Assembly (NCBI GenBank): GCA_031414595.1
Contig: JANNVX010000088.1
Location: 64,001 to 128,000, forward strand
DNA: 64,000 nucleotides
Origin: Deinococcales bacterium
GTDB lineage: Bacteria; Deinococcota; Deinococci; Deinococcales; JAAFIG01
Direction: 5' to 3'
A program made the position numbers and the translations under genes. Position 1 is the first letter of the stretch. Each line of letters opens with the position of its first letter. Below the pieces are notes generated by a model. That model was not told the DNA's origin. It saw only the letters and a program-made list of their open reading frames with translations, and made no database searches. Positions 1-64,000 of this stretch are shown piece after piece.

Positions 1-165
1 CTGGTTTAAGGCTTTGAGTTGGTCTGGTGTGAGGTCGTCAAGGCTTTTGAGTTTGCCAGTATGCCCAATCAAATAAGCGACGAATAGCCTTGTGGTTGTT
101 TGCTTTGCTGCCCGTATCACTGGGATGCTGTTCAGGCGCACCCATGCCAAGCTCGAGGCTTTCAT
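1..165 (-). CDS. Hypothetical protein, N-terminal part only (runs off window)
   Basis: ATG at 165 overlaps the TGA of the AAA gene (ATGA); frame open to base 1 (MKASSLAWVRLNSIP...). Confidence 0.55.
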   Translation of the reverse strand, partial: MKASSLAWVRLNSIPVIRAAKQTTTRLFVAYLIGHTGKLKSLDDLTPDQLKALNQ

Positions 166-1811
166 GCTTTAACCTTCATTGTCGCTGCCTCGAGTTCGTA
201 CAACCGCTCGAGGGCTGCCGTGTCGCCACCCTTAGCGGCTTTTACCAGACTGGACAATATCAGCCGGTCAGCTTGGCTCGAGGGTCGCATTGCTAAGAAC
301 CGCGTCTCGAGTTCAGGGGTCAGAGTTGCACCTACTCGTTTTGCTGTGGGTTTCGACACTGGCAAAACATAATTATGTCCATCTTTGATAATTGCACCTT
401 GCTGCTCGAGCAGTTCAAGGGCTGTTTGAATTTCGGTTTGAAATGCACCATGTTCAAAACTCAGTTCACGGTATAAGTTCACTGGGGTTATCCGGCGCTT
501 TGCTTTGATAACCTCGAGTGCCAAAACCGTCAAATCATTTGATGCAGTTGAATCATTTGATGCAGTGGCTTGTGCATGAAATGATTCGCTGTCTATAACG
601 CTGTTCTTGGCATTTGATGTAGTGGATTGCATAGCAAGCGTATCCCCTGTACCCCTTGCTCTAACTTCTGACTGCATGAAATCGGCTTTATGCGTGATTG
701 ACGCAGTAACATTTGATGTAGTGCCGACTGCATGAAATGGGAGTGACTGCATCAAATCATCTTGGCTCGAGTCATCGCTTTTTGTGGGTAAGGCTTTAAG
801 TCTGTACGAAAGTGGCGCACCCTTTCCAATCCCTTTGATGGTCTCGAGCCGATCACCAAAGCCACCAAAAGCACGGCGCATAGCTTCATCTGCCCATCGC
901 TCTTTGATGTTACCGCCTGATATTGCCACTTCAAGCAATTCTTTACGGCTAAAGGTCTCACCCGCTCGAGCCTCGAGAAAGCGTGTCACGGCTTTTTCCG
1001 CTCTGTCCTGCCCGTTGTTCTCGGAGTTGGGAAGGTCACACCGTTCAACTCTGACCAAGTAAGCAGGGTCTATGTCATCGCCCTCGAGAACCAAGCGCAC
1101 ACCAAAAGGCTCGAGTCTTTGGGCAAAACTTTGTTTATGGACTTCCCAGCGAAGTGTATTTTGACCATCACATTCTTTTGGGTCAACTCGAGACAGGATA
1201 TGTACCGCTCGAGCCTGTGCGCTCTTGGCAACACTTCCCATAATGCCCCTGTCGCCGTCTTTCTCCCCTGCCATGCGTTTAGGAATGTGGTCAGTGATAA
1301 TCACGGCTGCTTTGGTCTTGGCTGCCAAGTTACGAAGTCCAGCCATCGGTTTCATGGTTTGCTCGAGTCGGTTTATATCGAGTCCGGGGAACGCACCCAT
1401 GTACGAATCAATCACGATGACTTGGGTCCCACTCTCCAAGGCGTGTAAGGTCAGGTTCTCGAGGTCGTCAGGGGTCAAACCACCATCAGACGGCTCGAGA
1501 ACCGCAATCTTTGAGATGTCGCCATCTGGGTAAGCGGCTTTGTGTTTCTCGAGCCAGTGGCGTACCGTTCGGGATTCGCCATCAGGTGCATCAGTATTTA
1601 CATAGATACTTGAGCCATGCGGCACACGCCAGCCAAGGAACTCACCACCGCGAGGGCGTGACATCTGCCAAAGAAGCCCTGCGAGGATCGTAGTTTTGCC
1701 AACGCCCTCACGCGCTCCAAAGAATGAAGTAAAGCCAAGCGGGAACACATCAGGTACAACAAAGCGGATGACCTCGAGAGGTGCAGTTAAATTGACCATC
1801 TTCAAAGCCAC
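162..1811 (-). CDS. AAA_25/RecA-like ATPase, RepA-type replicative helicase of the element
   Basis: Walker A GAREGVGKTT, Walker B IVIDS, 'IITDHIPK' and 'GSVAKSAQAR' motifs typical of phage/plasmid RepA helicases. Confidence 0.8.
   Translation of the reverse strand: MALKMVNLTAPLEVIRFVVPDVFPLGFTSFFGAREGVGKTTILAGLLWQMSRPRGGEFLGWRVPHGSSIYVNTDAPDGESRTVRHWLEKHKAAYPDGDISKIAVLEPSDGGLTPDDLENLTLHALESGTQVIVIDSYMGAFPGLDINRLEQTMKPMAGLRNLAAKTKAAVIITDHIPKRMAGEKDGDRGIMGSVAKSAQARAVHILSRVDPKECDGQNTLRWEVHKQSFAQRLEPFGVRLVLEGDDIDPAYLVRVERCDLPNSENNGQDRAEKAVTRFLEARAGETFSRKELLEVAISGGNIKERWADEAMRRAFGGFGDRLETIKGIGKGAPLSYRLKALPTKSDDSSQDDLMQSLPFHAVGTTSNVTASITHKADFMQSEVRARGTGDTLAMQSTTSNAKNSVIDSESFHAQATASNDSTASNDLTVLALEVIKAKRRITPVNLYRELSFEHGAFQTEIQTALELLEQQGAIIKDGHNYVLPVSKPTAKRVGATLTPELETRFLAMRPSSQADRLILSSLVKAAKGGDTAALERLYELEAATMKVKA
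533..757. repeat. Iteron-like cluster ATTT(G/C)ATG(C/T)AGT in both orientations inside the rep gene; putative origin
   Basis: Forward copies at 537, 555, 612, 711; reverse copies at 573 (partial), 671, 727, 746. Confidence 0.7.
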
Positions 1812-1814
1812 AAC

Positions 1815-2471
1815 TCACCACCCACCCTTAGAGGCTTTCCAACTTTTACCGCTCGAGCGTTCGGGCTTACTGGGTGCTGGTCTGTCCTCAAGTTGCCACG
1901 GGTTACGAACACCAGAACGCAAACTACTTTGCACCGTGGCGCGTACTCGGTGAGGCTCGAGACCAGAGGATAGTCCAGCGTCCTCGAGTTGGCTTCTAAA
2001 GGCTTCGGGGTCAACATCGTGACCAGATGCCAAGCCACCGACTTTGTACGCGGCTTTGGCAAGTTCGGCTTGTCGTAAACCCTGCCCACTTGGGAGGCTC
2101 GAGACACTAAGGCAGACCTTAGAAACCCAAGACTCGAGACGTGACCGAATATCACGGGCTTGGTACGGTTTAGGACTACTCTCGAGGTCGCCAGCCCAAA
2201 GGTATACCGCTCCGTAATGGCAGATATGCCCAAGTTCAGGAAAGGCAATCACTGCGCCGTAGTCATCACTCGAGCGATACGCGGTTAGGGCTATGCCATC
2301 GGCTAATAAGTCAGGGGTTGCACTCGAGACAGAAAAGCCAGCGCGTTCAAGCTCACAAATTGCGCCGCGTAGTACATCACGGTCAAAGGTGTGGTGTCGC
2401 ACGTTGCACCGCCTTTGCAAACTCGAGTGGTGCGTCCTTGACGGCTTCATTTGGCAGTGTGGGTAGGTCAT
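1815..2471 (-). CDS. Primase C-terminal-like helical protein (likely start GTG at about 2402)
   Basis: AYKVGGLASG...LEDAGLSSGLEPHRVRATVQSSLRSG resembles the helical domain that follows Prim-Pol domains; lies directly upstream of the helicase. Confidence 0.5.
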   Translation of the reverse strand: MTYPHCQMKPSRTHHSSLQRRCNVRHHTFDRDVLRGAICELERAGFSVSSATPDLLADGIALTAYRSSDDYGAVIAFPELGHICHYGAVYLWAGDLESSPKPYQARDIRSRLESWVSKVCLSVSSLPSGQGLRQAELAKAAYKVGGLASGHDVDPEAFRSQLEDAGLSSGLEPHRVRATVQSSLRSGVRNPWQLEDRPAPSKPERSSGKSWKASKGGW

Positions 2472-2580
2472 CCCAGTTTGTAGCCTGAGTAATTGGCTTT
2501 AAGTTTTTGACTCGAGGTGCTACAATTCTGGTATCAGTTTGTGCAGTTCTCGAGTGTCCCGTGTTGCCAGCACGGGACAT
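2383..2580 (-). CDS. Small hypothetical protein of the element
   Basis: Start is coupled to the excisionase stop (TAATG). Confidence 0.5.
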   Translation of the reverse strand: MSRAGNTGHSRTAQTDTRIVAPRVKNLKPITQATNWDDLPTLPNEAVKDAPLEFAKAVQRATPHL

Positions 2581-2801
2581 TATTTTGCACCTTGCTCGAG
2601 GATATTCTTAACAAAAGTTTCAAGTTCTGCTCGAGGAATATACGCACGGTTTCCGATTCGTATTGCTTTAAGTTTTCCTTCTCGCACAAGTTTATAGGTG
2701 CTATCCCGCCCAATTCCTAAGAACTTTGCTGCTTGGTGGGTGTTCACCATCAATGGTGAATCAATAGGGGTAAGTGTCGCCGCCGTTTCTGGTAACGTCA
2801 T
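2580..2801 (-). CDS. Excisionase-family (HTH_17) DNA-binding protein
   Basis: NTHQAAKFLGIGRDSTYKLVREGKLKAIRIGNRAYIPRAELETF; AGGAGA RBS. Confidence 0.85.
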   Translation of the reverse strand: MTLPETAATLTPIDSPLMVNTHQAAKFLGIGRDSTYKLVREGKLKAIRIGNRAYIPRAELETFVKNILEQGAK

Positions 2802-2968
2802 AAAGCATCTCCTGATGCCCTCGAGTGCTGCTTTGGTAGGTACGCTCGAGGTATTTTATTTTTCAAGCAAAGCAGAAATCTCTTCTCTTTGCTTCGCTCA
2901 GTACATTACAGGGCATTAGCGAACGAGTCAAGGAATACCATGCTATACAAGCATAGAATCATACTTTC

Positions 2969-3193
2969 TTGTTCGGAGTTATAGCCAACGCAACAGAACG
3001 CAGCACGATTAACCCGTTACAAGTACCATCATGTAGTACCACACTGTGTGACCAATAACTCAGAAGATAACCCCAGCGCTTTCATTGTCTAAGACAGTAA
3101 ATGAACTACATTTTGTGTTCTTTTTGTTCTGAGTTATTGCTAATTGAGTAAAGTGAACTTCGTGTTATCTGGTATGCCAATAACTCAGAACAA
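2969..3193. promoter_or_regulatory. Four copies of TTGTTCTGAGTTATTG-like motif arranged as two inverted pairs; putative operators
   Basis: 2969-2984 (+, 2 mismatches), 3053-3066 (-, partial), 3124-3139 (+), 3178-3193 (-, perfect). Confidence 0.55.
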
Positions 3194-3194
3194 G

Positions 3195-3764
3195 TCATAC
3201 GCTAAAGTCTATAGTTCGGGCTGTCTCAGTTAGTCTTAAGTGGGTAGTACGAGGTTTAACGTTACCTATCCGCTGCCGCTCAAGTAATTTGCGAGATTCT
3301 AAACGTCTCACAGCATCAGAAATTGCATTAGGGGCATGGTCATCTAGCCCTCGAGCTTTCAAGAATTCTTTACTACTCCAGGGGATTCCAAAGCCTTGCA
3401 ACTCATGACGTTTTCTTGCTGTGCGAGCTTTTTTTTCGATGCTAAGTAAGTATTTCAAGATTTCAAGTTGTAATTTAGAAAGCTGTGCGTCAGCATATCG
3501 AATCCCTCTGCGTACCCGGCACAATCCCCATAATGGTGATGACCCATCATCTGGTATGTACCAGATGTATTTTAGCCCTTCTTCGACAGCGTATTCGGCA
3601 TTGAATGGTCTTGTTTCACCAATAAATCCCCCTAGTTCTTTTGGTACTCCATCGGGGTCATACATTGGGCTTCTCTTGCCTATAGGGGCTGCTTCTAATA
3701 CTGGTCGTAACCGTAAAGGAAATATCCCTTTAGAACCATATCCTCGAGACGCACGACCATTCAT
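3195..3764 (-). CDS. Hypothetical protein with C-terminal winged-helix (MarR-like) domain
   Basis: LSKLQLEILKYL...AISDAVRRLESRKLLERQ...HLRLTETA. Confidence 0.6.
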   Translation of the reverse strand: MNGRASRGYGSKGIFPLRLRPVLEAAPIGKRSPMYDPDGVPKELGGFIGETRPFNAEYAVEEGLKYIWYIPDDGSSPLWGLCRVRRGIRYADAQLSKLQLEILKYLLSIEKKARTARKRHELQGFGIPWSSKEFLKARGLDDHAPNAISDAVRRLESRKLLERQRIGNVKPRTTHLRLTETARTIDFSV

Positions 3765-3956
3765 ACTATATCTTACTATATGCTCCTAACAAAATGATGT
3801 AGGACGATTCGGAAGGTTTGACCGTGTGCAACCCGTGTGCAACGGGCAAAGTTTTTTATAGGAAGACTCAGGATGTTGTAGTAGAACAGCTTAGAAAAAA
3901 CACGCCCTAGACAGCACATACAAAACATTGAAGTAAGATGTAGTATAGAGTTTTCG

Positions 3957-4004
3957 TGATTCGTAATCAGTAGGTCGTCGGTTCAACTCCGACCATCGGC
4001 TCCA
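3957..4004 (+). pseudogene. 3' half of tRNA-Thr(CGT), the att-site duplication of the element
   Basis: Anticodon arm TGATTCGTAATCA, T-arm GTCGGTTCAACTCCGAC, acceptor strand CATCGGC-TCCA; the matching 5' acceptor strand and D-arm are absent upstream. Confidence 0.85.
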
Positions 4005-4008
4005 GAAG

Positions 4009-4034
4009 AAAACCCCGTGATGAACGGGGTTTTT
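4009..4034 (+). terminator. Rho-independent terminator (native tRNA terminator)
   Basis: AAAACCCCGT-gatga-ACGGGGTTTTT. Confidence 0.85.
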
Positions 4035-4159
4035 AGATTTGCCACTTTAGTTTTATGTTGTGGATTTTTGTGTTGTGATGCAGAATTTGGTGCTTATGAA
4101 TCATGGTTTTGGAAACAAAATTTATGCCAATCAATACCGAATTTTTTTAATCAAGTATT

Positions 4160-4618
4160 TTAGGGCATTTTTACCTTGAGTACGCCGATTGAATCACGTC
4201 CAGACTGACCAACCCGCAGCAGGGCTGTGCTGCGAACAGGCTGCTTAAAACAGACCTTGATGGTTTTACTGCACACACAAAAATCTGCCTCAATCTCGAG
4301 CGGATACTCACCTCGAGCCGCATTCTTGGGGATTTGCAGAGGAATCTCGAGGATATTGACCTTTTCCCAGTATTCGCTTGGCAACTCTGACCAAGGTGTC
4401 CCTGAAAATGCACTGCTGCTAAACGGCTTGGTACGATTAAAAGAGTTGGAAACTCGCACTACATTTGGGGCTGTGCGGCTGAGGGCAATATCAGCCTCGA
4501 GCGCTACCCTGAAACGCAAAATGGCTGGTTTGTCTGGTATGGCATAGACAAGCGACTGTTCAGCTTGGCTGCTGCTGACCAAAAGTAGACCAATCCATTT
4601 ATGATTGTTTAACCACAT
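4160..4618 (-). CDS. Secreted DsbD N-terminal-like thiol-disulfide domain protein (start uncertain)
   Basis: Signal-like N-terminus; C-terminal FCVCSKTIKVCF motif. Confidence 0.5.
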   Translation of the reverse strand: MWLNNHKWIGLLLVSSSQAEQSLVYAIPDKPAILRFRVALEADIALSRTAPNVVRVSNSFNRTKPFSSSAFSGTPWSELPSEYWEKVNILEIPLQIPKNAARGEYPLEIEADFCVCSKTIKVCFKQPVRSTALLRVGQSGRDSIGVLKVKMP

Positions 4619-4670
4619 AGACCACACCACCAGAATGCTCAATCCAAGCCCGTTCAAACATACAGTTTTT

Positions 4671-5573
4671 TCACTGCCCACTCCATGTCTGACCAGCGTC
4701 AAAACTGGCATAAACCTGTCCAACATCAGAAACACCATAGATATTTTTGTTGTTTTTTGGATTGACCGCTAAAAGAATAAAAGCCTCTGGTGCTTTTAAT
4801 TCTGCCCAACTTGTGCCATTGTCACTCGAGCGCAAAATACTGCTGTTCGATAAGCTAATCAAAATTGCCCCAGAGGTTTCGACCGCAATGGTCAATGGCT
4901 GACCATCAACTTTAATTTGCTTCCAAGTTGTTCCACCATTGCTCGAGCTAATTAAACCTTGGTCTTGAGTTACGGCGTAAAGAACAGGTGGCACACCTGT
5001 GGCAGCCACAATTTTGTAGGCTTGAGTTGTAGCTTTAGTCACAAAATTCCAGTTTTTTCCACCATCGGTTGAACGGTACAATCCACCCCCTGCCAGATTC
5101 GCGTATAACCAACCATTACTAGCCACTGTAAAACCATGAATATCTGTACCAGGTAGATTTCCCACACCGGGCTTTTGCCATGTCTGACCGGCATCTGGAC
5201 TGACTGCAAAAAAATCATGTCCCGCCAAAAACACCTTACCCGAATTCACGCCCATACCCATGGCATCACCGCCACCAGCCGCCTCGCTCCATGTCCGACC
5301 GGCATCTTTAGAAACTTGCACACCTGCGTGTTGCCCGTAATAAAGGCTGCCATCTTCACCAACTACTAGGGCGTGTAAATCACCCTCGAGTTGTGCCAAT
5401 CGGCTACCGGATGCTTGCCCAGATGGGTTACTCGTACTTGTGGAAGGCAATCTGGACGAAAAAAAACTCCAAGCAAAAACACCAATGCCAGCCATTACCA
5501 ATACAAAAAATACAGCCGTAAAAATCAATGGGCGTTTTTCCGAAGGTTGGGTTTGTTGTTCTGGGTTTTTCAT
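4671..5573 (-). CDS. Membrane-anchored BNR/Asp-box beta-propeller protein (YCF48/F510_1955-like)
   Basis: N-terminal TM helix; repeated SxDxGxTW motifs; DLHAL and DIHGF motifs. Confidence 0.8.
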   Translation of the reverse strand: MKNPEQQTQPSEKRPLIFTAVFFVLVMAGIGVFAWSFFSSRLPSTSTSNPSGQASGSRLAQLEGDLHALVVGEDGSLYYGQHAGVQVSKDAGRTWSEAAGGGDAMGMGVNSGKVFLAGHDFFAVSPDAGQTWQKPGVGNLPGTDIHGFTVASNGWLYANLAGGGLYRSTDGGKNWNFVTKATTQAYKIVAATGVPPVLYAVTQDQGLISSSNGGTTWKQIKVDGQPLTIAVETSGAILISLSNSSILRSSDNGTSWAELKAPEAFILLAVNPKNNKNIYGVSDVGQVYASFDAGQTWSGQ

Positions 5574-7391: not shown

Positions 7392-8075
7392 GTGACCAGA
7401 ATTTTGGTGGTTGATGACGAACCCAGTGTGCGTGATATTGCCCGTGGCTATCTTGAGCGCGAAGGGTTTGTGGTCTCGAGCGCCGAAACTGGTTCACAAG
7501 GCTTACAACAAATCCTAGAAACAGCCCCACATTTGGTGATTCTCGATCTGATGTTGCCAGAAATGGATGGGCTTGAAATTCTAAAACGCCTTCGTCCACA
7601 TAATAAAACACCTGTGCTGTTACTGACGGCTCGAGGTGAAGAATTTGATCGGGTGCTTGGCTTAGAACTAGGCGCAGATGATTACCTGACCAAACCTTTT
7701 AGCCCCCGTGAATTGGTGGCTCGAGTCAAAGCAATTTTGCGTCGAACCGAGACCCAAAGTAGCAGTCAAGCCTTGCAGCACGGCGATTTACGCTTAGACC
7801 CACAACGGCACGAAGTGTATTTAGCAGATAAACTGGTACACTTGAGCGCCCTCGAGTTTGAATTGCTTTATACTTTACTGGCTCAACCGATGCGGGTTTT
7901 TAGCCGCAACCAACTGATTGAGGCTGTTTGGGGCGATGATTTCCCCGGTGTAGACCGTGTAGTGGATGTGCATATCTCGAGTCTACGGCGCAAACTAGGC
8001 GATGACCCTGAACGTCCACGCTACCTTGCGACGGTGCGTGGGGTTGGCTACCGAATGCTCGAGGCTCGAGGATGA
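7392..8075 (+). CDS. OmpR-family response regulator
   Basis: ILVVDDE receiver, GADDYLTKPF, TVRGVGY; GTG start 5 nt after TACAAT. Confidence 0.95.
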   Translation: MTRILVVDDEPSVRDIARGYLEREGFVVSSAETGSQGLQQILETAPHLVILDLMLPEMDGLEILKRLRPHNKTPVLLLTARGEEFDRVLGLELGADDYLTKPFSPRELVARVKAILRRTETQSSSQALQHGDLRLDPQRHEVYLADKLVHLSALEFELLYTLLAQPMRVFSRNQLIEAVWGDDFPGVDRVVDVHISSLRRKLGDDPERPRYLATVRGVGYRMLEARG

Positions 8076-10047: not shown

Positions 10048-11367
10048 TCAATCAAAGTAGAAACTCAAAGGATTACGAATTCGGGATTTGGCGGCATAGG
10101 TCATGATGGCTCGAGCCAAGCGGGTGGCATTGTGTTGGGCTTGACCACCTTTGGAGAGGTTAGTTTGAATCACTTGCACACCGCGCATTCGCACCGCGTC
10201 TATGTCTTGTTTGACAGGTTTAGCACCAACTTTGGCGTATTGGGCTAAGGTGCTGGGGTGAAGACTGGCATTGTTGGTTAAAACGGCATCGGGGGTGCGT
10301 TGTAAGTGCTGAATAATCACATGCAGATGCTCGAGCAGGCTCATGGTATCGGTTTCGCCGGGTTCGGTCATGATATTAGAAATGTAAAGCAGCTTTGCCC
10401 TAGATTTCTTAATCGCAGTTTTTAAGTCTGGTACAAGCAACGTTGGCACTAAACTGGTGTATAAACTGCCCGGTCCAATTAAAATCACTTCGGCATTTTG
10501 AATCGCTTCGATTGCCGCTTTCGGGGCGGTTAAATGATTTGGCTCGAGCAGCATTCGGTCTATTTTTCGGTTCTTTCGCTCCAACCCGAGGGTGCTTTCA
10601 CCGCGTATGGTTGTGCCATCTTCTAAAAGTGCCACCAGCACGGCTGGCTCGAGACTGGCGGGTAGGACTGTGCCACGCACATCAAGGATTTCATTGACCG
10701 CTTGGGTGGCTTGGGCAAAATCTTGACGATGTTCTGCGAGCGTGGCAATCAGTAAATTACCAAAGGTATGACCGCTAATGTCCCCACGGGTAAAACGGTG
10801 GGTCAAGAGTTCTTTTAAGAGCGGGCTGTCAGACAGTGCCGCGTAACAATCGGTTAAATCACCCGGGGCAGGCATCTCGAGACCCACCCGTAAGCGTCCA
10901 CTCGAGCCGCCATCATCGGTGACTGCCACAATTGCCGTGATGTTGCTGGTAAATCCCTTTAAGCCCGTCAGTAAATTGCTTAAGCCCGTGCCACCACCTA
11001 AAGCCACGATTCGTGGACCTCTGGTTAATGCCCTGCGCCGAAAAATAATATCCACGGTTTCTCTTGGACTCGAGCCAACTGCCAAGAGCAAACTGCGGTT
11101 TAAGCCAAGAATACCAATCACTCCAAGCAGCAAGCCACCAAAAAAACCAAGCGCCATAAGACCCCAACGTCCCAAACCAAGATTTTCGGAAATCTCAATT
11201 AAGCGTGCCGTCCAATTGATAAAATTATTGCGTTCAGGACCAACCCGCGCCCAAGCCACAAAAGCCAAGACCAGCGTAATTAGCCCCAGTAAAATCAGCA
11301 CCACAAAGCGTTTGACCCGTAAGCCCGGAATCAGCCAGCGCCAGATGCCAAAAAAATAGCTTTTCAT
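10048..11367 (-). CDS. yvcK: YvcK/GlmR-family UDP-GlcNAc-binding protein with N-terminal membrane segment
   Basis: GGGTGL, DDGGSSGRLR, GPGSLYTS; adjacent to rapZ. Confidence 0.92.
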   Translation of the reverse strand: MKSYFFGIWRWLIPGLRVKRFVVLILLGLITLVLAFVAWARVGPERNNFINWTARLIEISENLGLGRWGLMALGFFGGLLLGVIGILGLNRSLLLAVGSSPRETVDIIFRRRALTRGPRIVALGGGTGLSNLLTGLKGFTSNITAIVAVTDDGGSSGRLRVGLEMPAPGDLTDCYAALSDSPLLKELLTHRFTRGDISGHTFGNLLIATLAEHRQDFAQATQAVNEILDVRGTVLPASLEPAVLVALLEDGTTIRGESTLGLERKNRKIDRMLLEPNHLTAPKAAIEAIQNAEVILIGPGSLYTSLVPTLLVPDLKTAIKKSRAKLLYISNIMTEPGETDTMSLLEHLHVIIQHLQRTPDAVLTNNASLHPSTLAQYAKVGAKPVKQDIDAVRMRGVQVIQTNLSKGGQAQHNATRLARAIMTYAAKSRIRNPLSFYFD

Positions 11368-12209
11368 GCCTCGCCCTCAGCCCGTTCAATATCGCGGTGT
11401 TCGGTTTGTAGGGCGTACTGACTCGAGAAATCCCGTGCTAGACTTTCGATGACGGCGACACTGCGATGGTAGCCTCCGGTGCAACCCACCGCCACACTGT
11501 AATTGGAACGCCCACTGGCTTTGGCACGTTCAAGATTGAGTTTCACAAATTCACGCAATTCATTAAAAAAAGCGGTGCCATCAGCTGTAAAAATATGCTT
11601 TGCAACATCCGGCTCGAGACCACTGCGGTGTTTTAAGCTGGCATCCCAATACGGATTGGGCAAACTGCGGGCATCCACCACCAAATCGGCATCGGTCGGC
11701 GCACCATGCTTAAAACCAAAACTAAAGAGCGTGACCATAAATTTCTGGCTAGGGTCGCCGTACAAATTCCTAAGGCGCTCAATCAAATCTCTGGCTTTTA
11801 AGTTAGAAGTGTCAATCACGGTGTCGGCTCGTTCACGTAAGCCCTCGAGAACCCGTCGTTCCTCACGAAAATCACCCAATAACGTTGGCTCACCAAGCGG
11901 ATGAGCGCGTCGCGTCAAACCATAGCGCCGCACCAGCACATCATCATCAGCATCTAAAAATACCAATTCTGGTTGTACCGAAGTTTGGGTGATTGCAAAC
12001 GCCATCTCGAGGTCAGACAAAAAATGGCGCGTTCGGGCATCTGTGACTACTGCCACTCGCTCTAAACCTCGAGCCGAACAACCCGTAATCAATGCTGTCC
12101 AGAGCATTGGTGGCAAATTATCGGTGATAAAATAACCAAATTCCTCGAGGGCTTGCAGTGCCGTGGTTTTACCCGCCCCACTTCGCCCGGAAACAATCAC
12201 AAAACGCAT
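11364..12209 (-). CDS. rapZ: RNase adapter RapZ (YvcJ)
   Basis: SGRSGAGKT, DNLPP, SFGFKHG, GCTGGYHRSV. Confidence 0.95.
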   Translation of the reverse strand: MRFVIVSGRSGAGKTTALQALEEFGYFITDNLPPMLWTALITGCSARGLERVAVVTDARTRHFLSDLEMAFAITQTSVQPELVFLDADDDVLVRRYGLTRRAHPLGEPTLLGDFREERRVLEGLRERADTVIDTSNLKARDLIERLRNLYGDPSQKFMVTLFSFGFKHGAPTDADLVVDARSLPNPYWDASLKHRSGLEPDVAKHIFTADGTAFFNELREFVKLNLERAKASGRSNYSVAVGCTGGYHRSVAVIESLARDFSSQYALQTEHRDIERAEGEA

Positions 12210-31412: not shown

Positions 31413-32183
31413 ATGGTGTCTGAAGATTCAGTGCTTGTTTGGGAGTCAGGGTCAAAACTCGAGAAGTTCAATCAGCAAATTTCGCTGCCAATCACATACT
31501 CGAGAAAGCAACAAGAACAATTTATTGCTGAGGTTACCCCTGAAATATACACAGGTTTGTATCAGATTTTGGAATCTGAAGGGGTTAAGATTGAAACAAT
31601 TAAGGAAGTCTTAACCATGTGGACAAGTGGAAAATCACGACAACGAGAATCCTTAAAAAATGCTTGGCAATTAGTCATCGAGTATTCATCAAATATAACG
31701 CTGGAAGCCCAAGCCTTACGTGCTTTAATTGTCACTCGCGCTCAGCGTTGGGAATTATTGGCATCTTATTTACAAATCCCTCGTCCAAGTGCGTTTCGGC
31801 TTTATCGTGGTTTTGATTTGATGAATCAACATTTTTCTTCTGAAAGACGCACAGAAATAGTTCGGGATACTGTTAATGATTGGTGTTCTGGTCGTACTGA
31901 ACCGCGTGTCTATCCGCATTCAAATTTAGCTTCATGGGGACTGACACTCGAAGCAACTGAACCATTCCGAAGAACAGAATTAGGCTTAATTTATCAGGCA
32001 GATATTCCATTCGCAGCCACCTTAGCTGATAAATGGATTGATGATTCTGGATTTTTATTAATTCCACAAGAGCTTGAAGTCGTTGTCCTTAACCCAAGAC
32101 TTGGTATCGAAATACAAAGCCGTCATATTCGAGTAGTATTTCAGAATACAGTTTACAATCAATCAAAAGTAAGTCATTTGTAA
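31413..32183 (+). CDS. Hypothetical protein with putative ADP-ribosyltransferase (R-S-E) fold
   Basis: LYRG ... NLASW ... QELEVVV motif order. Confidence 0.55.
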   Translation: MVSEDSVLVWESGSKLEKFNQQISLPITYSRKQQEQFIAEVTPEIYTGLYQILESEGVKIETIKEVLTMWTSGKSRQRESLKNAWQLVIEYSSNITLEAQALRALIVTRAQRWELLASYLQIPRPSAFRLYRGFDLMNQHFSSERRTEIVRDTVNDWCSGRTEPRVYPHSNLASWGLTLEATEPFRRTELGLIYQADIPFAATLADKWIDDSGFLLIPQELEVVVLNPRLGIEIQSRHIRVVFQNTVYNQSKVSHL

Positions 32184-32237
32184 GACGCGTGGTATCGAAA
32201 ATATGGTGTACACTTGTAACAGGTAAGGAGGTATTTT

Positions 32238-32591
32238 GTGGGTCAAGATATAAAACTACAACAGGCATTAGCGCAACTATGGGCAATAGCTGACGATTAT
32301 GATTCACGTGGACTTTTGTCTGCCCCTGATTGCTTTCCGACCATTGGCGCATTTGCCGATGATGCCCCTGATATACATTTTGCTCTACTGAATGGTCTGT
32401 TGGATTCTTCTTTATCAGACAAAACAAACAATACCTTTGAATACGTTGCGTTATTTAGCAGTGCAAAAGCCTTACAGTCATCCATCCCTGATGTCAGTCA
32501 TCAGCCATTTTCTTATTCGGAAAATATGACCCGAAAGTGGAATTCCAAACAATTTAGCTTATCCTATTCCAATGACACTTGGGCAAATTAG
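32238..32591 (+). CDS. Hypothetical protein
   Basis: Strong AAGGAGG RBS before the GTG start. Confidence 0.6.
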   Translation: MGQDIKLQQALAQLWAIADDYDSRGLLSAPDCFPTIGAFADDAPDIHFALLNGLLDSSLSDKTNNTFEYVALFSSAKALQSSIPDVSHQPFSYSENMTRKWNSKQFSLSYSNDTWAN

Positions 32592-32652
32592 TCATTAGAC
32601 GCTTATAAAGCATCTATTTCTTTCTTCAACTAATTGTCTTAAACTACTCCCC

Positions 32653-33444
32653 ATGCCTACGCAGTCTATTCGTTTTGACAATGGTCCTAAGCTCTATCCG
32701 TTCAAAACCGATCTTGAATTTGCTCTGAACTCTCGAGTGGTGGTCAATTCGCGGCGTGGCTTAGAAGTCGCAACTGTGCGAGACACGGCTCGAGGCAATT
32801 CTGAACATGTTGGCGGCGAAATTTTGCGCCAAGCTAACTTAGAGGACATCCAGCGCTGGCAGAAACTCGAGTCTGATGCCAATGACCTCAAATGGTTTTT
32901 ACGCGCCAAGGTGCGTGAGTACCGAATGCCAATCAAAGTTGTGGCGCTCGAGTTTACTTTGGATGGCTCTACCCTGACCGTATCGTACTCGAGTGAAGAA
33001 AAACAAGAATTGCGCCATTTGATTCAGGACTTAAATGCTAAAACTTCGGCTCATATTCATTTTCATCCCGTTGGTGCAAGAGACCAAGCACGGATTTTGG
33101 GGGTTTTGGGGGTCTGCGGGCGCGAAAACTGCTCGAGTCATCATTTACAAGAATTCACACCAGTCACGATTCGCATGTCTCGAGACCAACAACTGCCACT
33201 TAATCCAGAAAAAATCTCGGGTCCGTGTGGGCGTTTACTGTGCTGTTTACAGTACGAACACGAAATGTACATTGATTTACTCAAAGGCTTACCGCGCAAA
33301 GGCGCAAAAGTATGCAGCACCGAAGACGAAAGTATGTGCGGTAAAGTCATGAAAATTAACCCACTAAAACAAACGGTTGAAGTGAAATCCGACGAAGGCG
33401 CTTGGTTTGAAATTGCCAAAGAGAACCTAAAAGCCGTGCGGTAA
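32653..33444 (+). CDS. PSP1-domain protein (RicT/YaaT family)
   Basis: GARDQARILGVLGVCGRENCS, QQLPLNPEKISGPCGRLLCCLQYE. Confidence 0.92.
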   Translation: MPTQSIRFDNGPKLYPFKTDLEFALNSRVVVNSRRGLEVATVRDTARGNSEHVGGEILRQANLEDIQRWQKLESDANDLKWFLRAKVREYRMPIKVVALEFTLDGSTLTVSYSSEEKQELRHLIQDLNAKTSAHIHFHPVGARDQARILGVLGVCGRENCSSHHLQEFTPVTIRMSRDQQLPLNPEKISGPCGRLLCCLQYEHEMYIDLLKGLPRKGAKVCSTEDESMCGKVMKINPLKQTVEVKSDEGAWFEIAKENLKAVR

Positions 33445-41184: not shown

Positions 41185-41593
41185 AGAGCAGAGGAAAGAG
41201 GAAAGGGGAAAGAGAAAGGTTTTTATTCCTCCTTCCTCCCTCCTCCTTCCTCTATTGTGTGCTTGTAGTTTCACTTTTATTCCCTTTGCGCCTCAATCGC
41301 TCGAGATTCCACCCGCGATTATTATTGCCAATGACAGTGCTTTGAGCCGCAGTCAAAATACGATTGTGCTGCGGGTTAAACTGACTAAAGTACCAAACGA
41401 AGGCTACTTGAGTGCTAGTTTGTACTTAAAGACCGACCGCACTGAAAAGCGCATTGCCGAAGATAGTAAGTTAATTACTACAGCCTCGAGGGAGCTTGTG
41501 TTTACTTTCCCAGAAGCCAAAATCGGGCAGTACCGTGCTTATTTGTTTTGGCAGGGCAGCATTGTACGGCAATTTGAATTTGTATTGAAGTGA
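41171..41593 (+). CDS. Hypothetical lipoprotein (start uncertain)
   Basis: LLCAC lipobox; N-terminus overlaps a heptamer repeat. Confidence 0.55.
   Translation: MTRIEEQRKEERGKRKVFIPPSSLLLPLLCACSFTFIPFAPQSLEIPPAIIIANDSALSRSQNTIVLRVKLTKVPNEGYLSASLYLKTDRTEKRIAEDSKLITTASRELVFTFPEAKIGQYRAYLFWQGSIVRQFEFVLK
41185..41252. repeat. Purine/pyrimidine heptamer inverted-repeat element
   Basis: (AGAGGAA)-like x4, then (TTCCTCC)-like x4. Confidence 0.7.
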
Positions 41594-41642
41594 GTTGTTT
41601 TTGGTGTCTCGAGCATGCCGCCCTTGGTCTTTGCTTGGATAG

Positions 41643-43121
<1,479 letters not shown>

Positions 43122-47731: not shown

Positions 47732-48108
47732 AAAAAATTGATCAATTGCTCAGTCAAATCAGTAGCCAAGAAATTCTTGAAGTGCGTGTTCCTAAAGGCA
47801 CGCTAAAACCAACGCGCTCCGCCAGAGCCATACTCGAGCAAGCAGGGCAAGTTGTCATTACTCAAGCAGTTCATAAAGCCCTGACCCAAGCCCGTAAAAA
47901 TGCTGGTTTACAAGCCAAAGATGTTGCTAAACAATTACAAATCAGTGCGGCTCGAGTAGCACAAATAGAAAATCAACCACGCAACCTAACCCTCGAGACG
48001 CTAGTGCAACACGCCCAAGCCATAGGTTACGAAGTTGAAATTGTGCTACACCCACGCCAGAAGAACTTGCCAGAAGTTCGTGCTGAGCTTGGTGGTATCC
48101 ATGTCTGA
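47728..48108 (+). CDS. XRE-family HTH antitoxin (HigA-like)
   Basis: ARKNAGLQAKDVAKQLQISAARVAQIE...NLTLETL. Confidence 0.8.
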   Translation: MKKIDQLLSQISSQEILEVRVPKGTLKPTRSARAILEQAGQVVITQAVHKALTQARKNAGLQAKDVAKQLQISAARVAQIENQPRNLTLETLVQHAQAIGYEVEIVLHPRQKNLPEVRAELGGIHV

Positions 48109-48793
48109 ATACCCTAACACTGCTGGGTGGTTAGCAATGCAAGACGGGCAGCAAGTAAATGCACATAAACGTGTATGGATAACCAGTGTCGTAGAAGTTG
48201 AAAAATTAGAGTTACCTTCGGGTAAGTTAGTGATTTATGACCCCTCCAGTTTAGACTCAAGATATTCATATCAGTTTTATCCAAACGGTAGCAAAGACGA
48301 TTCTTACTACTTTGTACCCATTGGACAACATCGAATTTTCGTGACGCTTGCCACCTCTGAAAATGATTCAAGAAATGCGTATTCAACGATGATTTTACGA
48401 CCAGACGAGACAGAAGTAAAGCGTGTGGCTGCAATCCCTGTGACAATAGGTAAAATGCCTGTCGCCCCTTTGAAAGCTGGTAATTTTTATGGCGTAGGCG
48501 TTGATGCAGGTATGATTTGTTTTGTAGATGAAATAAACTTATTGAAATTTATGCCACAAAACCACGATCAATGGTTTGATGTTTATCACGATGTTTGGCT
48601 TGAGACTATTTCACCATATCCAGCCCCAACAAAATCTAAAACCTTTTGGAACTTAGTTTTGCCCAACGCTAAGACAGAAAACATGATCGTAACAGAAAGT
48701 GGTTTTGGTGATGGGTGGTATCCAATTATTTGGGGGTTGAATTCTAAAGATGAAGTAATTGCTATTCACGTGGATTTTGGAATTTTCAGATAA
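48101..48793 (+). CDS. DUF4241-family protein
   Basis: LPSGKLVIYDP, GVDAGMICFVD, SGFGDGWYP, VDF. Confidence 0.85.
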   Translation: MSEYPNTAGWLAMQDGQQVNAHKRVWITSVVEVEKLELPSGKLVIYDPSSLDSRYSYQFYPNGSKDDSYYFVPIGQHRIFVTLATSENDSRNAYSTMILRPDETEVKRVAAIPVTIGKMPVAPLKAGNFYGVGVDAGMICFVDEINLLKFMPQNHDQWFDVYHDVWLETISPYPAPTKSKTFWNLVLPNAKTENMIVTESGFGDGWYPIIWGLNSKDEVIAIHVDFGIFR

Positions 48794-52620: not shown

Positions 52621-52905
52621 TCAACGGTAAACTTCTTGATGTGTTCCAATGTTGACCAACCAAATTTCTTCTTGCAAATCTTTGGTTTTTTGAATTACAA
52701 ACACGATTCTTAGGTCATAACCAGCACTACAAGCGTAATGATTCTTATATTTTCCTTTGAGTTTATGGGTTTCTAAAGACGCTTCAAAAGCGTTGACCGA
52801 TAGTTGTTGTAGAACTTTTGTAATTTGAATCTGAAAATCTGGATGAATTGCTAGAAAACGTTTGTAAGCTCGCCAAAACGAGGTATACGTTCGTATTTCT
52901 CTCAT
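52621..52905 (-). CDS. YafQ/RelE-family toxin (copy 1)
   Basis: [21 protein letters not shown]. Confidence 0.9.
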   Translation of the reverse strand: MREIRTYTSFWRAYKRFLAIHPDFQIQITKVLQQLSVNAFEASLETHKLKGKYKNHYACSAGYDLRIVFVIQKTKDLQEEIWLVNIGTHQEVYR

Positions 52906-53105: not shown

Positions 53106-53106
53106 T

Positions 53107-53673
53107 CTATTCTCCTCCTATGCCTTCGTAAATTTGTTCTAAAGTTAGTGTGGTGCTTGGGCATGGAATTTCTATGTTACCGTCTGTGTAATGCTCGTGT
53201 TGCCAAGTCCCATTCTCGAGCCTACGGTGCATTTCCACCAGTCTTTGGTCTTGATGCACAATCATGTAGGCTTTGAGGCTTTCAATGCGCTGGTAATTGG
53301 TTTTTTTCTCGGTTAAGTCAATTCGTTTGGTGCTTTCGGATAAAACTTCAACCACAAAACAAGGTTTGGTCTTGAAAAGTGCACCGTCATCGGTTTCATC
53401 ACAAATAACAATCACATCGGGATAATAAGAAACTTTTGGTGGTTCAACAATCATTACTTTCATATCGCTTTGCATGATTCGGCAGTGTTTTGTTTTCTTG
53501 GCTCGAGCCACAAGGGTTAATTCAAAGACGATATTCCCCACGATTAAATTATGGGTTTCGGTTGCTCCTGCCATGGCATACAATTGCCCATCCACATATT
53601 CATGCTTAATGAAAGCACGCTCTTCTTGCTCGAGGTACTGTTCTAAGCTGAGTGTGGATAGGGTCGTGTTCAT
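53107..53673 (-). CDS. Uma2-family endonuclease
   Basis: HEYVDGQLYAMAGA, YYPDVIVIC, VVEVLSEST, EKKTNY. Confidence 0.93.
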   Translation of the reverse strand: MNTTLSTLSLEQYLEQEERAFIKHEYVDGQLYAMAGATETHNLIVGNIVFELTLVARAKKTKHCRIMQSDMKVMIVEPPKVSYYPDVIVICDETDDGALFKTKPCFVVEVLSESTKRIDLTEKKTNYQRIESLKAYMIVHQDQRLVEMHRRLENGTWQHEHYTDGNIEIPCPSTTLTLEQIYEGIGGE

Positions 53674-61986: not shown

Positions 61987-62009
61987 CAGGTTGGACACAA
62001 ATAGGTATT

Positions 62010-63740
62010 TTACGGGGCGATGTCGTTACCACTGGTTGTACCAGTTGCTCCCTGTGGACCAGGTTGAGTTCCATTACAAATAGTAACACTAGAAGGCACA
62101 ATACCACCCGTGCCGCCAAGACCGCCGACAACAAAATTACCACTTACTAAGCCACTCCCATTGACCGTCACTGTGCCAGCTTTGTACACCCCACCCACAG
62201 ATGCGCTTCCACCAGTCCCACCAACCTTTGCTGGAGAACAAAAACTCATAGTTCCAAAAGTAACTCGAGAAGCATCCTGACCCCTTAACCCATTGCCACC
62301 AGTAGCTGTATTTCCAGTAATGGTGCTGGCAACCAGTGTTAAATTTGCGTCTTTGATGTATATCCCACCGCCCAAAGCCGGAACTGCACCAGTTCCTGTT
62401 CCTTTGGTGCTGTTGGTTTTAATTTGACTGTACTTGACTGAAACTGCCCCGTTAGATTGAATTCCACCACCTGTGGCAACTACACTGGACTCAGAGTTAT
62501 TATTGCTAATAGTCATCCCAAATAGATTGAGTACACCATCGTTCAATATTCCAGCGCCACCACTGTTAGGAGTGAAACCTTGTTTGACAGTAAATCCGTA
62601 CAAGTTTAATGTATTTCCACTACTGATGTTCAAAACGCGCCGTGCATTGTTACCACTGATGCTGACACCTTCGCCAGCCAAAATGGTCAAATTTTTAGTA
62701 ATGCTCAGTTCGGCGCTTGTTAAGATGATATTTTGTGTAAAACAAAGCGTACTGCCTGTCGTGGCGTCGCTAATGGCTTGCCGCAAACTGCCAGCCCCAG
62801 TATCTGTGTTGCTGGTCACGGTTGTGGTGATGCTTGAGGCTTTCAATTCGCTGTCATAGACATTATCAACAGGGTCTTCTGCAAGGAGGACTCTTTCCTG
62901 AACACGATTTGAGCCACTTAATCCACAAGCTGCACCACCAAGTACGCTGACTCGAGCCGAGCCGTCGGTTGTTAATTGGGCTTGGGTTAAACCTGCGGTT
63001 GTCCCAGCAAATTGGTCTTCTGGGGTTTGCACCAATTCTTTTGTTCCAGAAGTATCGGTAAACAGCAAAAACGTCATACTGAAGTTATAAGTTTCCCCAA
63101 TCTCTTTGGGTATCTTTAAGGCGATGGTCACAAAACCACTTTCGCCGTTCTCAATTGTTCGGTCTACGGCATCGGCATTGGTTTGAGGGCTGCGTTGCCG
63201 CACCAAATACCCGTAGCCAAGCAGGTTTTCGCCACTTGCTAAGTTTGTTCCGGCCAAGGTTGTTCTCGAGGTGATTTCTGTGTCGGTGTAAACTTGTAAA
63301 TCGGCATAATCGGCACTAGGCTTAAATGGAGGTGTAATGGCGCAACTTGCACCCAAGCCATGGCGTGGTTGGGCAGCCGTAGCGTCTGGTGTGGCGACCC
63401 CGCCAAAATCGTTAATGCTTTTCAGGGCGGTTTTATTGGCGTTGCCAGTTTTTTTGTAGGCATGAAGTTGCAAATTTGTCAGGCTGCTTCCTGTGTTATT
63501 GACAACCGTAAAACGGCGGTAAATGTAGCGCAGATTGCTTGGGACATCATTACAAACAACTGTTAAACCGGGCGTAAAGATGATTCCAGTTTCGGTCTGA
63601 AAGGTGGCTGCTTGGGCGGCTAAGTTATTGCCAATCCCTAGTTCAATGGCTGTTACCTTAGTGTTGCTTGGGGCTGGACTGATTTGACAAGCTGCCAATA
63701 ATGCTGTGCCAAAAATACCGAGTAAGACTATTTTTTTCAT
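62010..63740 (-). CDS. Surface lipoprotein with Gly-rich beta-helix-like C-terminal domain
   Basis: Lipobox LAAC; GAGSLRQAI, GGAGI, GGGI repeats; GGAGG RBS. Confidence 0.8.
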   Translation of the reverse strand: MKKIVLLGIFGTALLAACQISPAPSNTKVTAIELGIGNNLAAQAATFQTETGIIFTPGLTVVCNDVPSNLRYIYRRFTVVNNTGSSLTNLQLHAYKKTGNANKTALKSINDFGGVATPDATAAQPRHGLGASCAITPPFKPSADYADLQVYTDTEITSRTTLAGTNLASGENLLGYGYLVRQRSPQTNADAVDRTIENGESGFVTIALKIPKEIGETYNFSMTFLLFTDTSGTKELVQTPEDQFAGTTAGLTQAQLTTDGSARVSVLGGAACGLSGSNRVQERVLLAEDPVDNVYDSELKASSITTTVTSNTDTGAGSLRQAISDATTGSTLCFTQNIILTSAELSITKNLTILAGEGVSISGNNARRVLNISSGNTLNLYGFTVKQGFTPNSGGAGILNDGVLNLFGMTISNNNSESSVVATGGGIQSNGAVSVKYSQIKTNSTKGTGTGAVPALGGGIYIKDANLTLVASTITGNTATGGNGLRGQDASRVTFGTMSFCSPAKVGGTGGSASVGGVYKAGTVTVNGSGLVSGNFVVGGLGGTGGIVPSSVTICNGTQPGPQGATGTTSGNDIAP

Positions 63741-64000
63741 GGTTGTTCCTCCGTGTCAAACCCAGTTTCCATAAAATCACCTAAGCTGCTTGCGCCAATT
63801 GGTAAGCTGACTCCCGTCACGAGCGACCACGTTTTGATTGTCTCGAGACGCGGTGTCTGGTACGGTTGCGGCGGATTGTACTTAACGACTTGATTCATTG
63901 ACTGCTCCTTTTTAGTACATCCCAGATTTTTGGATTGACTTTTGTACTTTTGACACTTTGCTTAGATAGGATTAAAGTCTGGTGTTTGACCTCGAGCATT

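Follow-up and report, generated by a model that had tools for sequence, protein, structure and literature searches.

What could make a single six-base palindrome the commonest word of its length in a stretch of ordinary chromosomal genes? The question is raised by 64,000 bp of DNA from a Deinococcales bacterium (contig JANNVX010000088.1 of assembly GCA_031414595.1, positions 64,001 to 128,000; hereafter, the window), in which the exact hexamer CTCGAG, a sequence that is its own reverse complement, occurs 358 times. The copies run from end to end (1..64000), in genes on both strands as well as in intergenic DNA, with a mean gap of 179 bp. A first-pass annotation had noticed the motif and counted it by hand in four places, and these counts are exact: 35 in 152-2850, seven in the proline-tRNA ligase (ProRS) gene proS (41664-43121), 20 in 45.1-47.2 kb, and 13 in 13.1-16.6 kb. 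The excess is real, and CTCGAG is a highly iterated palindrome (HIP). In what follows, the DNA of this lineage consists of the window together with 30.8 kb from four close relatives, referred to as L001 to L004.

The size of such an excess depends on the expectation against which it is read. In 100 dinucleotide-preserving shuffles of the window, CTCGAG appears 7.71 times on average (standard deviation 2.71, maximum 15), and none of the 100 reaches 358. Base composition (Markov order 0) predicts 13.8 sites, or 0.22 per kb, which agrees with the 0.2-0.25 per kb given by the first-pass annotation. Models of higher order predict 7.6 (order 1), 18.6 (order 2), 93 (order 3) and 307 (order 4) sites, but the last two were rejected as nulls for being circular: they are built from tetramers and pentamers that are nearly confined to the motif (716 of the 778 CTCGA pentamers on both strands, 92%, lie inside it), and so they absorb its signal. 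Masking the motif from the background gives an expectation of 3.7-4.8 sites. Expressed as a ratio, the excess is about 47-fold over the dinucleotide model and 75-95-fold over the motif-masked background. CTCGAG ranks first of the 4096 hexamers, with 3.4 times the count of the runner-up, and a check for other palindromes enriched to the same degree found none; the second of the 64 palindromic hexamers is AAATTT, with 46 sites and an observed-to-expected ratio (O/E) of 0.75.

One might suspect that so common a word simply follows from codon usage, dipeptide content or base composition, with Leu-Glu pairs written in favored codons as they are in the GC-rich Thermales. In keeping with this, 61% of the coding sites are in the Leu-Glu phase, and on Thermales plasmids CTCGAG is common, nearly always in that same phase (58/60, 30/35 and 27/28 sites), at 0.5-2.2 times the codon-based expectation. 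The window, however, behaves differently. Its coding set consists of 64 non-overlapping open reading frames (ORFs) covering 88.5% of the sequence; genes were called by ORF length, with an added filter on GC content at third codon positions (GC3) in GC-rich loci, so that intergenic values for the relatives are only rough. Each of the three phases is represented among the 322 coding sites (196 as CTC GAG, 54 as xCT CGA Gxx, and 72 as xxC TCG AGx). A single ORF at 162-1811 on the minus strand provides an example of each, namely CTC GAG (Leu-Glu, the commonest phase) at 1773..1778, TCT CGA G (Ser-Arg) at 1187..1192, and xxC TCG AGC (x-Ser-Ser) at 766..771; these had been read correctly in the first-pass annotation, as arithmetic on this ORF confirms.

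Synonymous shuffling within each gene retains the amino acids, the dipeptides, and the codon usage of that gene, including the share of it that the motif itself creates. Across 300 such shuffles there were 33.8±5.8 sites (maximum 49), to be compared with 322 observed; the means by phase were 24.7, 5.5 and 3.6, which makes the three phases enriched about 8-, 10- and 20-fold. Shuffling the order of the codons left 14.3±3.6 sites in coding DNA. Outside the motif, CTC and GAG are minority codons, making up 7.6% of the Leu codons and 20% of the Glu codons that lie away from Leu-Glu pairs. The density of sites is 5.63 per kb in coding and 5.31 per kb in intergenic DNA, and the latter (6377 bp, GC 0.435) holds 36 sites where its own composition would yield 0.5-2.3, an enrichment of at least 15-fold. 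The synonymous shuffles and the intergenic counts refute an origin of the excess in codons or composition, to which we give practically no chance. The earlier remark that this was not simple codon bias therefore stands, the excess having survived a shuffle that preserves both codons and dipeptides.

The motif also leaves its mark on the proteins. Leu-Glu pairs are encoded as CTCGAG in 196 of 316 cases (62%), where the codon frequencies given above predict 1.6%, so that codon preference at these pairs is overridden about 40-fold. Leu-Glu is the most over-represented dipeptide of the window, its 316 pairs standing against about 137 expected from amino-acid composition (O/E 2.31-2.33). Since the 120 pairs without the motif are close to that expectation, the motif appears to be responsible for roughly 180 Leu-Glu pairs per 19,000 codons. 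In control ORFs, chosen by length and GC3, the corresponding O/E is 0.90 for 12 Deinococcus loci, 1.14-1.34 for three Thermales plasmids, and 2.23 for the GC-rich relatives L003 and L004 taken together.

Not every protein is equally affected. Genes richer in Glu have a higher density of CTCGAG (Spearman rho 0.38, P = 0.006), and there is a weak trend with GC (rho 0.29, P = 0.035). Two membrane permeases are site-poor (1.1 and 1.9 per kb), as is the ribosomal protein S1 gene of L004 (1.5 per kb). We infer that selection at the protein level filters a pressure acting at the level of DNA; both the favored Leu-Glu phase and the site-poor permease and S1 genes would follow if protein selection only filters where sites persist. 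The 120 Leu-Glu pairs outside the motif have a codon pattern of their own, with CTGGAA used twice and TTGGAA six times (about 17 and about 24 are predicted from codon usage), and TTAGAA, at 42, above the codon-usage expectation.

Is the excess a property of this one contig or of a lineage? Relatives were located by a ProRS protein scan of species-representative genomes, and the closest are L001 (98% identity, Deinococcales), L002 (95%, Deinococcota), L003 (82%, Deinococcales), and L004 (78%, Deinococcales), followed by Deinococcus species at 57-64%. The motif is abundant in all four: 53 sites (4.5 per kb) in L001 at a GC of 0.454, 10 sites (3.0 per kb) in L002 at 0.460, nine sites (5.4 per kb) in L003 at 0.567, and 56 sites (4.0 per kb) in L004 at 0.623. 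It is the top hexamer in each set tabulated (L001 and L002 pooled, L003, and L004), and synonymous shuffles of the Pfam-supported ORFs give 3.4±1.7 sites in L001, where 37 are observed, and 11.8±3.1 in L004, where 45 are observed. The CTCGAG excess is specific to an uncultured Deinococcales lineage, made up here of the window and four independent assemblies spanning GC 45-62%, in which it amounts to 3-5.6 sites per kb.

Deinococcus does the opposite. Twelve loci from as many species (L005-L016, 200 kb) contain nine CTCGAG where 35-62 are expected, and five of their 298 Leu-Glu pairs (2%) are written with it, where codon usage predicts 11%. Deinococcus avoids CTCGAG, and the same word is found at opposite extremes in neighboring lineages; in 63 loci of other phyla the count is ordinary, at 298 sites where 229-325 are predicted. 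On the ProRS tree, a branch with support of 100/100 places the five motif-rich rows opposite 12 others (11 named Deinococcus and the uncultured bacterium L017), though support on whether the five are a clade or a basal grade is only 50/8. One change of state is enough to produce this arrangement, the tree being compatible with a motif that was gained once or was lost once on the Deinococcus stem.

The first-pass annotation also suggested that Meiothermus DNA is rich in CTCGAG. The controls that bear on this are 50 kb from each of four Deinococcota plasmids and represent plasmid DNA only. In their annotated genes, the Allomeiothermus silvanus plasmid has 35 sites against a synonymous-shuffle mean of 16.1, the Oceanithermus profundus plasmid 60 against 32.9, the Thermus thermophilus plasmid 28 against 56.3, and Deinococcus radiodurans plasmid MP1 (L083) four against 8.7. 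On the Oceanithermus plasmid (L084, pOCEPR01 1-50000), no hexamer is more frequent than CTCGAG, whose 133 sites in the 50 kb go with a 1.8-fold excess over the shuffle; on the Allomeiothermus plasmid (L081, pMESIL01 1-50000), CTCGAG leads the palindromes at 63 sites, with a 2.2-fold excess. In these two it sits almost always in the Leu-Glu phase, as listed above (58/60 and 30/35, respectively). The suggestion holds only in a weak sense, with a roughly two-fold excess in A. silvanus. The excess of about two-fold in some Thermales is of a different order from that of the window; it may reflect the same pressure in a weak form, or else an effect of codon pairs.

Many other palindromes are strongly avoided in the window. 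GGCC occurs once (at 63252) where 197-293 are expected, GATC 29 times where 166-248 are expected, TTTAAA not at all (22-53 expected), and AAGCTT not at all (17-37 expected), while TGCGCA, GGCGCC, GGTACC, CTGCAG and ATGCAT are each absent. The same set is avoided in L001 and L002, and a different one in L004 (CCGCGG, CGGCCG and GCCGGC 0, GGCGCC 1). Avoidance of the restriction type thus differs between lineages that have the CTCGAG excess in common.

How do the sites come and go? The ProRS gene (41664..43121, plus strand) was the locus used for orthologue comparisons, and its seven sites in the window start at 42183, 42204, 42724, 42758, 42853, 43020 and 43044. In the codon alignment, 15 columns have a site in at least one of the five motif-rich sequences, and the five Deinococcus sequences have none. 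Where the window has its four phase-0 sites, the five Deinococcus proteins have Arg/Gln-Gly/Ala; Leu-Asp (Leu-Glu in one); Leu-Asp; and Ala/Pro/Arg-Glu (Ala-Gly in one). The alignment indicates that the ProRS sites arose by substitution, often non-synonymous, at variable positions. A good example of an apparent gain on the branch of the window is 42183..42188 (plus strand), which encodes Leu-Glu at the first of these positions and where L001 has ATTGAA and L002 TTAGAT, a three-nucleotide difference. The reverse can be seen at 42592..42597 (plus strand), where the window reads CAAGGG and L001, L002 and L003 all read CTCGAG; this apparent loss is a three-nucleotide synonymous change with identical flanks.

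A somewhat longer comparison is possible, as 3.7 kb of the window (39458-43117) aligns to L001 (1918-5688) at 91.9% and about 1.9 kb aligns to L002 at 83%. Over the 3.7 kb, the window has 20 sites and L001 has 19, of which 15 are common, and 65% of background hexamers are identical; over the 1.9 kb, the window has 10 and L002 seven, with four in common and a background of 36.5%. Single sites thus turn over between close relatives with no change in density, and they are not clearly conserved beyond the neutral level. The nine sites that are polymorphic between the window and L001 differ by 1, 1, 1, 1, 2, 3, 3, 3 and 4 bases; differences of at least three nucleotides therefore account for four of the nine, in comparison with about 9% of non-identical background hexamers. 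Divergence around polymorphic sites is 19.8% within ±6 nt, 13.5% within ±15 nt, and 8.5% by ±60 nt, with 8.1% overall and 6.7-8.2% near shared sites. There are 20 spots with three or more differences in 6 nt between the window and L001, and five of these make or break CTCGAG.

Changes were polarized over 1860 ungapped columns with L002 as the outgroup, with an ancestor that is a parsimony guess and a neutral simulation that starts from this inferred ancestor. Polarization gives three gains, two of them in the window (TTAGAT>CTCGAG and CTCGGG>CTCGAG) and one in L001 (CTAAAG>CTCGAG), and two losses (CTCGAG>CAAGGG and CTCGAG>CTCAAG). Three gains compare with 0.29 expected neutrally (P = 0.0027) and two losses with 4.6 (P = 0.12), both from a small sample, the gains from two short branches. 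The direction is clear all the same, with gains about ten-fold over neutral and losses at perhaps half of the neutral rate. The 18 one-off variants of CTCGAG jointly occupy 146 loci (121 expected), beside 358 motifs. Because 358 motifs decaying at six positions would fill the one-off pool far faster than ordinary back-mutation from 146 loci could empty it, it would seem that either the reconversion of one-off variants exceeds the neutral rate tens of times over or selection acts against losses. We infer a continuing directional process, be it drive or selection for density, that is filtered by protein constraint. The suggestion in the first-pass annotation of an active process that creates or selects CTCGAG gains weight from the codons overridden at Leu-Glu pairs, the Leu-Glu ratio of 2.3, and the surplus of gains. 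As a separate matter, synteny with L001 extends over only these 3.7 kb (the flanks in L001 carry a lycopene cyclase, an ABC permease, DUF433, and a DDE transposase at 10608-11714), which, for the nearest relative known here, suggests that gene order has been rearranged even over short evolutionary distances.

The ten positions on each side of CTCGAG carry at most 0.03 bits each, with no flanking consensus, so that the repeated unit consists of the six bases alone and does not belong to anything longer. This bears on another explanation, that the sites are insertion scars, members of a miniature repeat family, or assembly artefacts, in which 6-bp units would have been supplied by a mobile element, by linker-like events, or by the assembler. 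A unit of 6 bp would keep the reading frame, and it would add Leu-Glu, the very dipeptide that is over-represented. However, the ProRS alignment has hardly any gaps (the genes, of 1449-1458 nt, fill 1461 columns), the columns of the sites are filled in all ten sequences, the flanks speak for no larger repeat unit, and the same excess is seen in four assemblies with different accession prefixes and binning labels. Together, the alignment, the flank information and the four other assemblies refute a 6-bp insertion, a repeat resembling repetitive extragenic palindromes or miniature inverted-repeat transposable elements, and an artefact; our estimate for this explanation is very close to zero.

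Placement along the sequence is close to random. The coefficient of variation (CV) of the gaps between sites is 0.95 (0.99±0.05 for random placement), and the number of sites per 2 kb averages 11.2 with a variance of 13.0, which is Poisson-like. The longest site-free gap, at 31505..32731, is 1227 bp free of the motif, or 1233 bp from start to start where 1144 would be expected at random, and it overlies low-GC ORFs at 31413-32183 (GC 0.39) and 32238-32591 (GC 0.41). There is no regular or periodic spacing within the 64 kb except for a short-range deficit: eight pairs of sites are less than 20 bp apart, where uniform placement would give about 40, and 28 gaps are shorter than 30 bp, where 53.5±6.3 would be expected. 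The closest pairs, at 965..977 and 8058-8070, have starts 7 bp apart. Since a self-complementary word repeated after 10-20 bp would allow a hairpin with a 6-bp stem, hairpin avoidance is probably the simplest reading of the exclusion below 20 bp, and the footprint of a protein would be an alternative.

Words that lie one change away from the motif can also be informative. The transition neighbors of CTCGAG are slightly above expectation: CTTGAG/CTCAAG is present at 35 loci against 22.2 (order 2) or 24.6 (order 1) expected and is not depleted, and CCCGAG/CTCGGG is present at 24 against 11. In the other direction, one extension of the motif is scarce. The octamer CCTCGAGG, the AbsI site, is found only at 12143..12150 and 41484-41491, that is, twice among the motif sites where flank-base frequencies predict 14.1 (Poisson P = 8.6e-5), and in L004 it is absent where 3.8 are expected; the other three palindromic extensions are at expectation. 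The T. thermophilus plasmid has the reverse pattern, with CCTCGAGG making up 39 of its 45 CTCGAG sites. A restriction system with an 8-base site is one possible cause of the depletion.

Turning to the genes of the window, the densest stretch is 152..2850, where 35 sites amount to 13 per kb, compared with 5.3 elsewhere (Poisson P = 2.6e-6). This module contains an AAA_25/primase-helicase-like gene (162-1811, minus strand) with Pfam and PHROGs matches, a gene of unknown function (1815-2471, minus strand), and a gene with a domain match to an excisionase-like helix-turn-helix protein (2580-2801, minus strand). From its gene content, 1-2900 looks like part of a mobile element that extends beyond the start of the window; a search for relatives of the AAA_25 gene gave no plasmid match and one irrelevant phage match at 30%. 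At the other end of the scale, low-GC ORFs are site-poorer than the rest (3.9 vs 5.7 per kb). Those with GC 0.35-0.41, in 31413-32591, 48035-48793 and 52621-52905, have 2, 0, 0 and 0 sites, and two of the three longest site-free gaps overlie low-GC ORFs. These site-poor ORFs are candidates for recent acquisition.

No methyltransferase, restriction or Vsr-like gene was detected by Pfam in 53 window ORFs and 22 ORFs of the relatives (nine of L001 and 13 of L004), by NCBIfam in 19 window ORFs (15 of them without a Pfam match), or by PHROGs in the seven ORFs of 1-4800. An Rfam scan of the window returned no family at the gathering score, and the window has no transfer RNA or transfer-messenger RNA genes. 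There is a gene for a putative endonuclease of the Uma2 family at 53107-53673 on the minus strand (PF05685, E = 1.6e-31), a family that is expanded in cyanobacteria and in Deinococcus-Thermus. Those who use the ORF coordinates should keep in mind that 34770-36482 (minus strand) and 36061-39423 (plus strand) overlap by about 420 nt as listed; the latter, a 1120-aa BTAD/NB-ARC/TPR protein, probably starts later, and the in-frame start at 36481 was taken for counting.

What, then, keeps the motif so dense? The account toward which we lean, at a little short of an even chance, is a HIP-type element kept by a directional process at the level of DNA, most likely an enzyme-marked self-tag that is favored in recombination or uptake; the self-tag mechanism as such is more doubtful than the wider account, though well worth entertaining. 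On this account, a resident CTCGAG-specific DNA enzyme, probably a methyltransferase and at present hypothetical, would mark the hexamer, and marked sites would be favored when self DNA is taken up, end-processed or recombined. Alleles bearing the motif would be over-transmitted, in a drive resembling biased conversion, so that the motif would become a dense watermark of self, as has been proposed for HIP1 of cyanobacteria. Sites would be made about ten times faster than by neutral mutation, and their loss may be slowed. A tag tied to DNA transfer fits the highest density being on a module resembling a mobile element and the low-GC, possibly recent, ORFs being site-poor. There is also precedent, as methylated HIP1 raises the transformation of Synechococcus more than 100-fold, with a Chi-like or uptake role proposed (bioRxiv 10.1101/2024.09.10.611283), and HIP1 has been put forward as an uptake watermark (PMC13756078).

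Several points weigh against the self-tag. The searches of the 64-kb window and of the scanned L001 and L004 ORFs yielded no gene for a methyltransferase, a Vsr-like enzyme or a restriction enzyme. A drive of the uptake or Chi type would be expected to saturate near one site per fragment, and the density here is 5.6 per kb; uptake sequences of the Pasteurellaceae and Neisseriaceae are present at near 1 per kb, and known uptake and Chi signals are longer and asymmetric. Sites that are placed in a Poisson-like manner and are not conserved above background would be just as compatible with a by-product that has no function. Behind the turnover statistics are only 3.7 kb of alignable DNA, nine polymorphic sites and three polarized gains, and 15 of the 20 clustered multi-nucleotide differences between the window and L001 do not involve CTCGAG. 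Sequence alone cannot part drive from selection for density.

The by-product just mentioned could come from biased repair, in which a CTCGAG methyltransferase together with mismatch repair (Elhai's ratchet), or an endonuclease of the Vsr type, converts near-cognate words without serving any function. We consider this unlikely. In its favor, turnover near neutral and sites without positional conservation (15/20 vs 65% and 4/10 vs 36.5%), Poisson-like placement, and the short patch of raised divergence at polymorphic sites (from 19.8% at ±6 nt to 8.5% at ±60 nt) would all be expected of it, and a repair origin of this kind has been argued by Elhai as a possibility for exceptional HIPs (PMC4390886). 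The simple Vsr form is weakened because the T:G neighbor CTTGAG/CTCAAG is undepleted (35 loci vs 22-25) and because some gains, TTAGAT>CTCGAG and CTAAAG>CTCGAG, need two or three simultaneous changes, which the correction of a single mismatch cannot achieve in one step. The ratchet, for its part, predicts saturation near 1 per kb (PMC4390886) and not the 5.6 per kb seen here, and for either form there is no enzyme gene in the ORFs scanned from the window, L001 and L004. Direct selection for density, to which we assign a similarly low probability, would do without conversion: each site would be weakly useful, for example to a nucleoid or condensation protein, as an epigenetic mark or as a repair scaffold, and would be held in mutation-selection balance. 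Coding and intergenic DNA being alike (5.6 vs 5.3 per kb), a density of 3-5.6 per kb being held across relatives of GC 45-62%, and losses tending below neutral (2 vs 4.6, P = 0.12) all agree with this, and the exclusion below 20 bp could be the footprint of such a protein. That zone is equally explained by hairpin avoidance, however; the spacing is irregular (CV 0.95, variance 13.0 vs mean 11.2, largest gap 1233 vs 1144 bp), the positions of sites are not conserved, and there is no known candidate binding protein. Finally, a long shot in our estimation is a system that writes the motif, in which near-cognate or even unrelated hexamers would be replaced by CTCGAG through a protein specific for it that works together with short-patch resynthesis or conversion. 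This would account for gains of two to four bases, the patch of divergence at ±6-15 nt, the scarcity of one-off intermediates, and the approximately 180 extra Leu-Glu pairs. If it were true, the lineage would offer an independent and mechanistically tractable origin of HIP-type genome architecture, next to a sister genus, Deinococcus, that purges the word.

Whichever process is at work, there are reasons to follow this motif further. HIPs have been a puzzle in cyanobacteria for three decades, and the HIP literature that we found all concerns that phylum; here is a second case of the HIP type, with a different word, in a different phylum and at higher density. It becomes possible to compare the genes that co-occur with the motif across Deinococcota with those linked to HIP1. 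The lineage is also a clean test case, because its sister genus avoids the same hexamer and because the motif is kept over a GC range of 45-62%. It illustrates how a DNA signal of six bases can prevail over the choice of codons and even of amino acids, to the point that the proteome is measurably distorted. On the practical side, CTCGAG is the site of XhoI, which would cut unmethylated DNA of this lineage to fragments of about 180 bp, and you would then have a test for methylation in one tube. Contigs of the lineage can be binned sharply by the motif, which also helps to spot recently acquired genes and could mark how long a gene has been resident.

It remains to place CTCGAG among the known classes of over-represented words. 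Uptake signal sequences (USS) of Pasteurellaceae and DNA uptake sequences (DUS) of Neisseriaceae are asymmetric words of 9-12 nt present about once per kb, spread by biased uptake and recombination and located at positions that proteins tolerate. CTCGAG resembles them in being a short word that is over-represented genome-wide, and it does not belong with them, since it is palindromic, only 6 nt long, devoid of information in its flanks, and present at 5.6 per kb. Nor is it a signal of the Chi type, since a palindrome cannot be strand-biased. In Escherichia coli, the Dcm/Vsr pair raises CCWGG and lowers CTWGG, a small effect that drains the T:G neighbor. The likeness is that an enzyme pair at a palindromic methylation site shifts the frequency of words; the excess here is about 50-fold, and the T:G one-off neighbor CTTGAG/CTCAAG is not depleted, which sets CTCGAG apart from word bias of this type. 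Avoidance of restriction sites would have the opposite sign in the window, and it is in Deinococcus spp. that avoidance is seen.

Enzymes with the same recognition sequence do exist elsewhere. In Nocardia, there is an orphan CTCGAG methyltransferase, and the motif clusters near dnaA (Blow et al., PMC4752239), while in Halorubrum sp. BOL3-1 a 5-methylcytosine enzyme methylates 533 of 560 CTCGAG sites (PMC8112702). As described in these two reports, the genomes concerned have no genome-wide excess, the motif being at ordinary frequency or clustered at the origin only. Searches of the literature turned up no earlier description of a CTCGAG excess, nor of any HIP in Deinococcota, a statement that covers the HIP papers apart from their supplements; neither "CTCGAG" nor "Deinococc" appears in the main texts of Elhai 2015 and Xu 2018. 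The exceptional HIPs of cyanobacteria (GGCGCC in Calothrix, rCCGGy in Oscillatoria PCC 10802, and GCsGC in Cyanothece PCC 7822) are similar in that each reaches a HIP-like frequency in one lineage, and each matches the site of a resident methyltransferase (PMC4390886). They differ in being sporadic, in single strains of a phylum that bears HIP1, with an O/E of about 15 for GGCGCC (PMC4390886), whereas CTCGAG is common to five species-level assemblies outside cyanobacteria and has a higher excess.

The closest comparison is with HIP1 itself, GCGATCGC. The sequences differ, one being an 8-mer of cyanobacteria and the other a 6-mer of Deinococcota, and in the window CGATCG occurs 0 times and GATC only 29. 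HIP1 is present at 300-2700 per Mb (PMC4390886) and CTCGAG at 5600 per Mb. HIP1 has cognate methyltransferases (GATC/CGATCG, DmtA/DmtC), and for CTCGAG there is none among the ORFs scanned. HIP1 sites are reported to be conserved beyond controls (PMC5861425); CTCGAG sites are shared in 15 of 20 cases against a background of 65% and in four of 10 against 36.5%, a small sample. Periodic spacing of HIP1 has been described at 18-94 kb (PMC5861425), and the window in which CTCGAG was studied is itself only 64 kb long. Set beside these differences are the features that the two have in common: each is a short, exact and hyper-abundant palindrome, present in genes and in spacers, independent of codons and following a lineage, and the fold excess is of the same order, with O/E values for HIP1 of 55-228 (Elhai, Table 2, PMC4390886) or 15-300-fold (Xu et al.).

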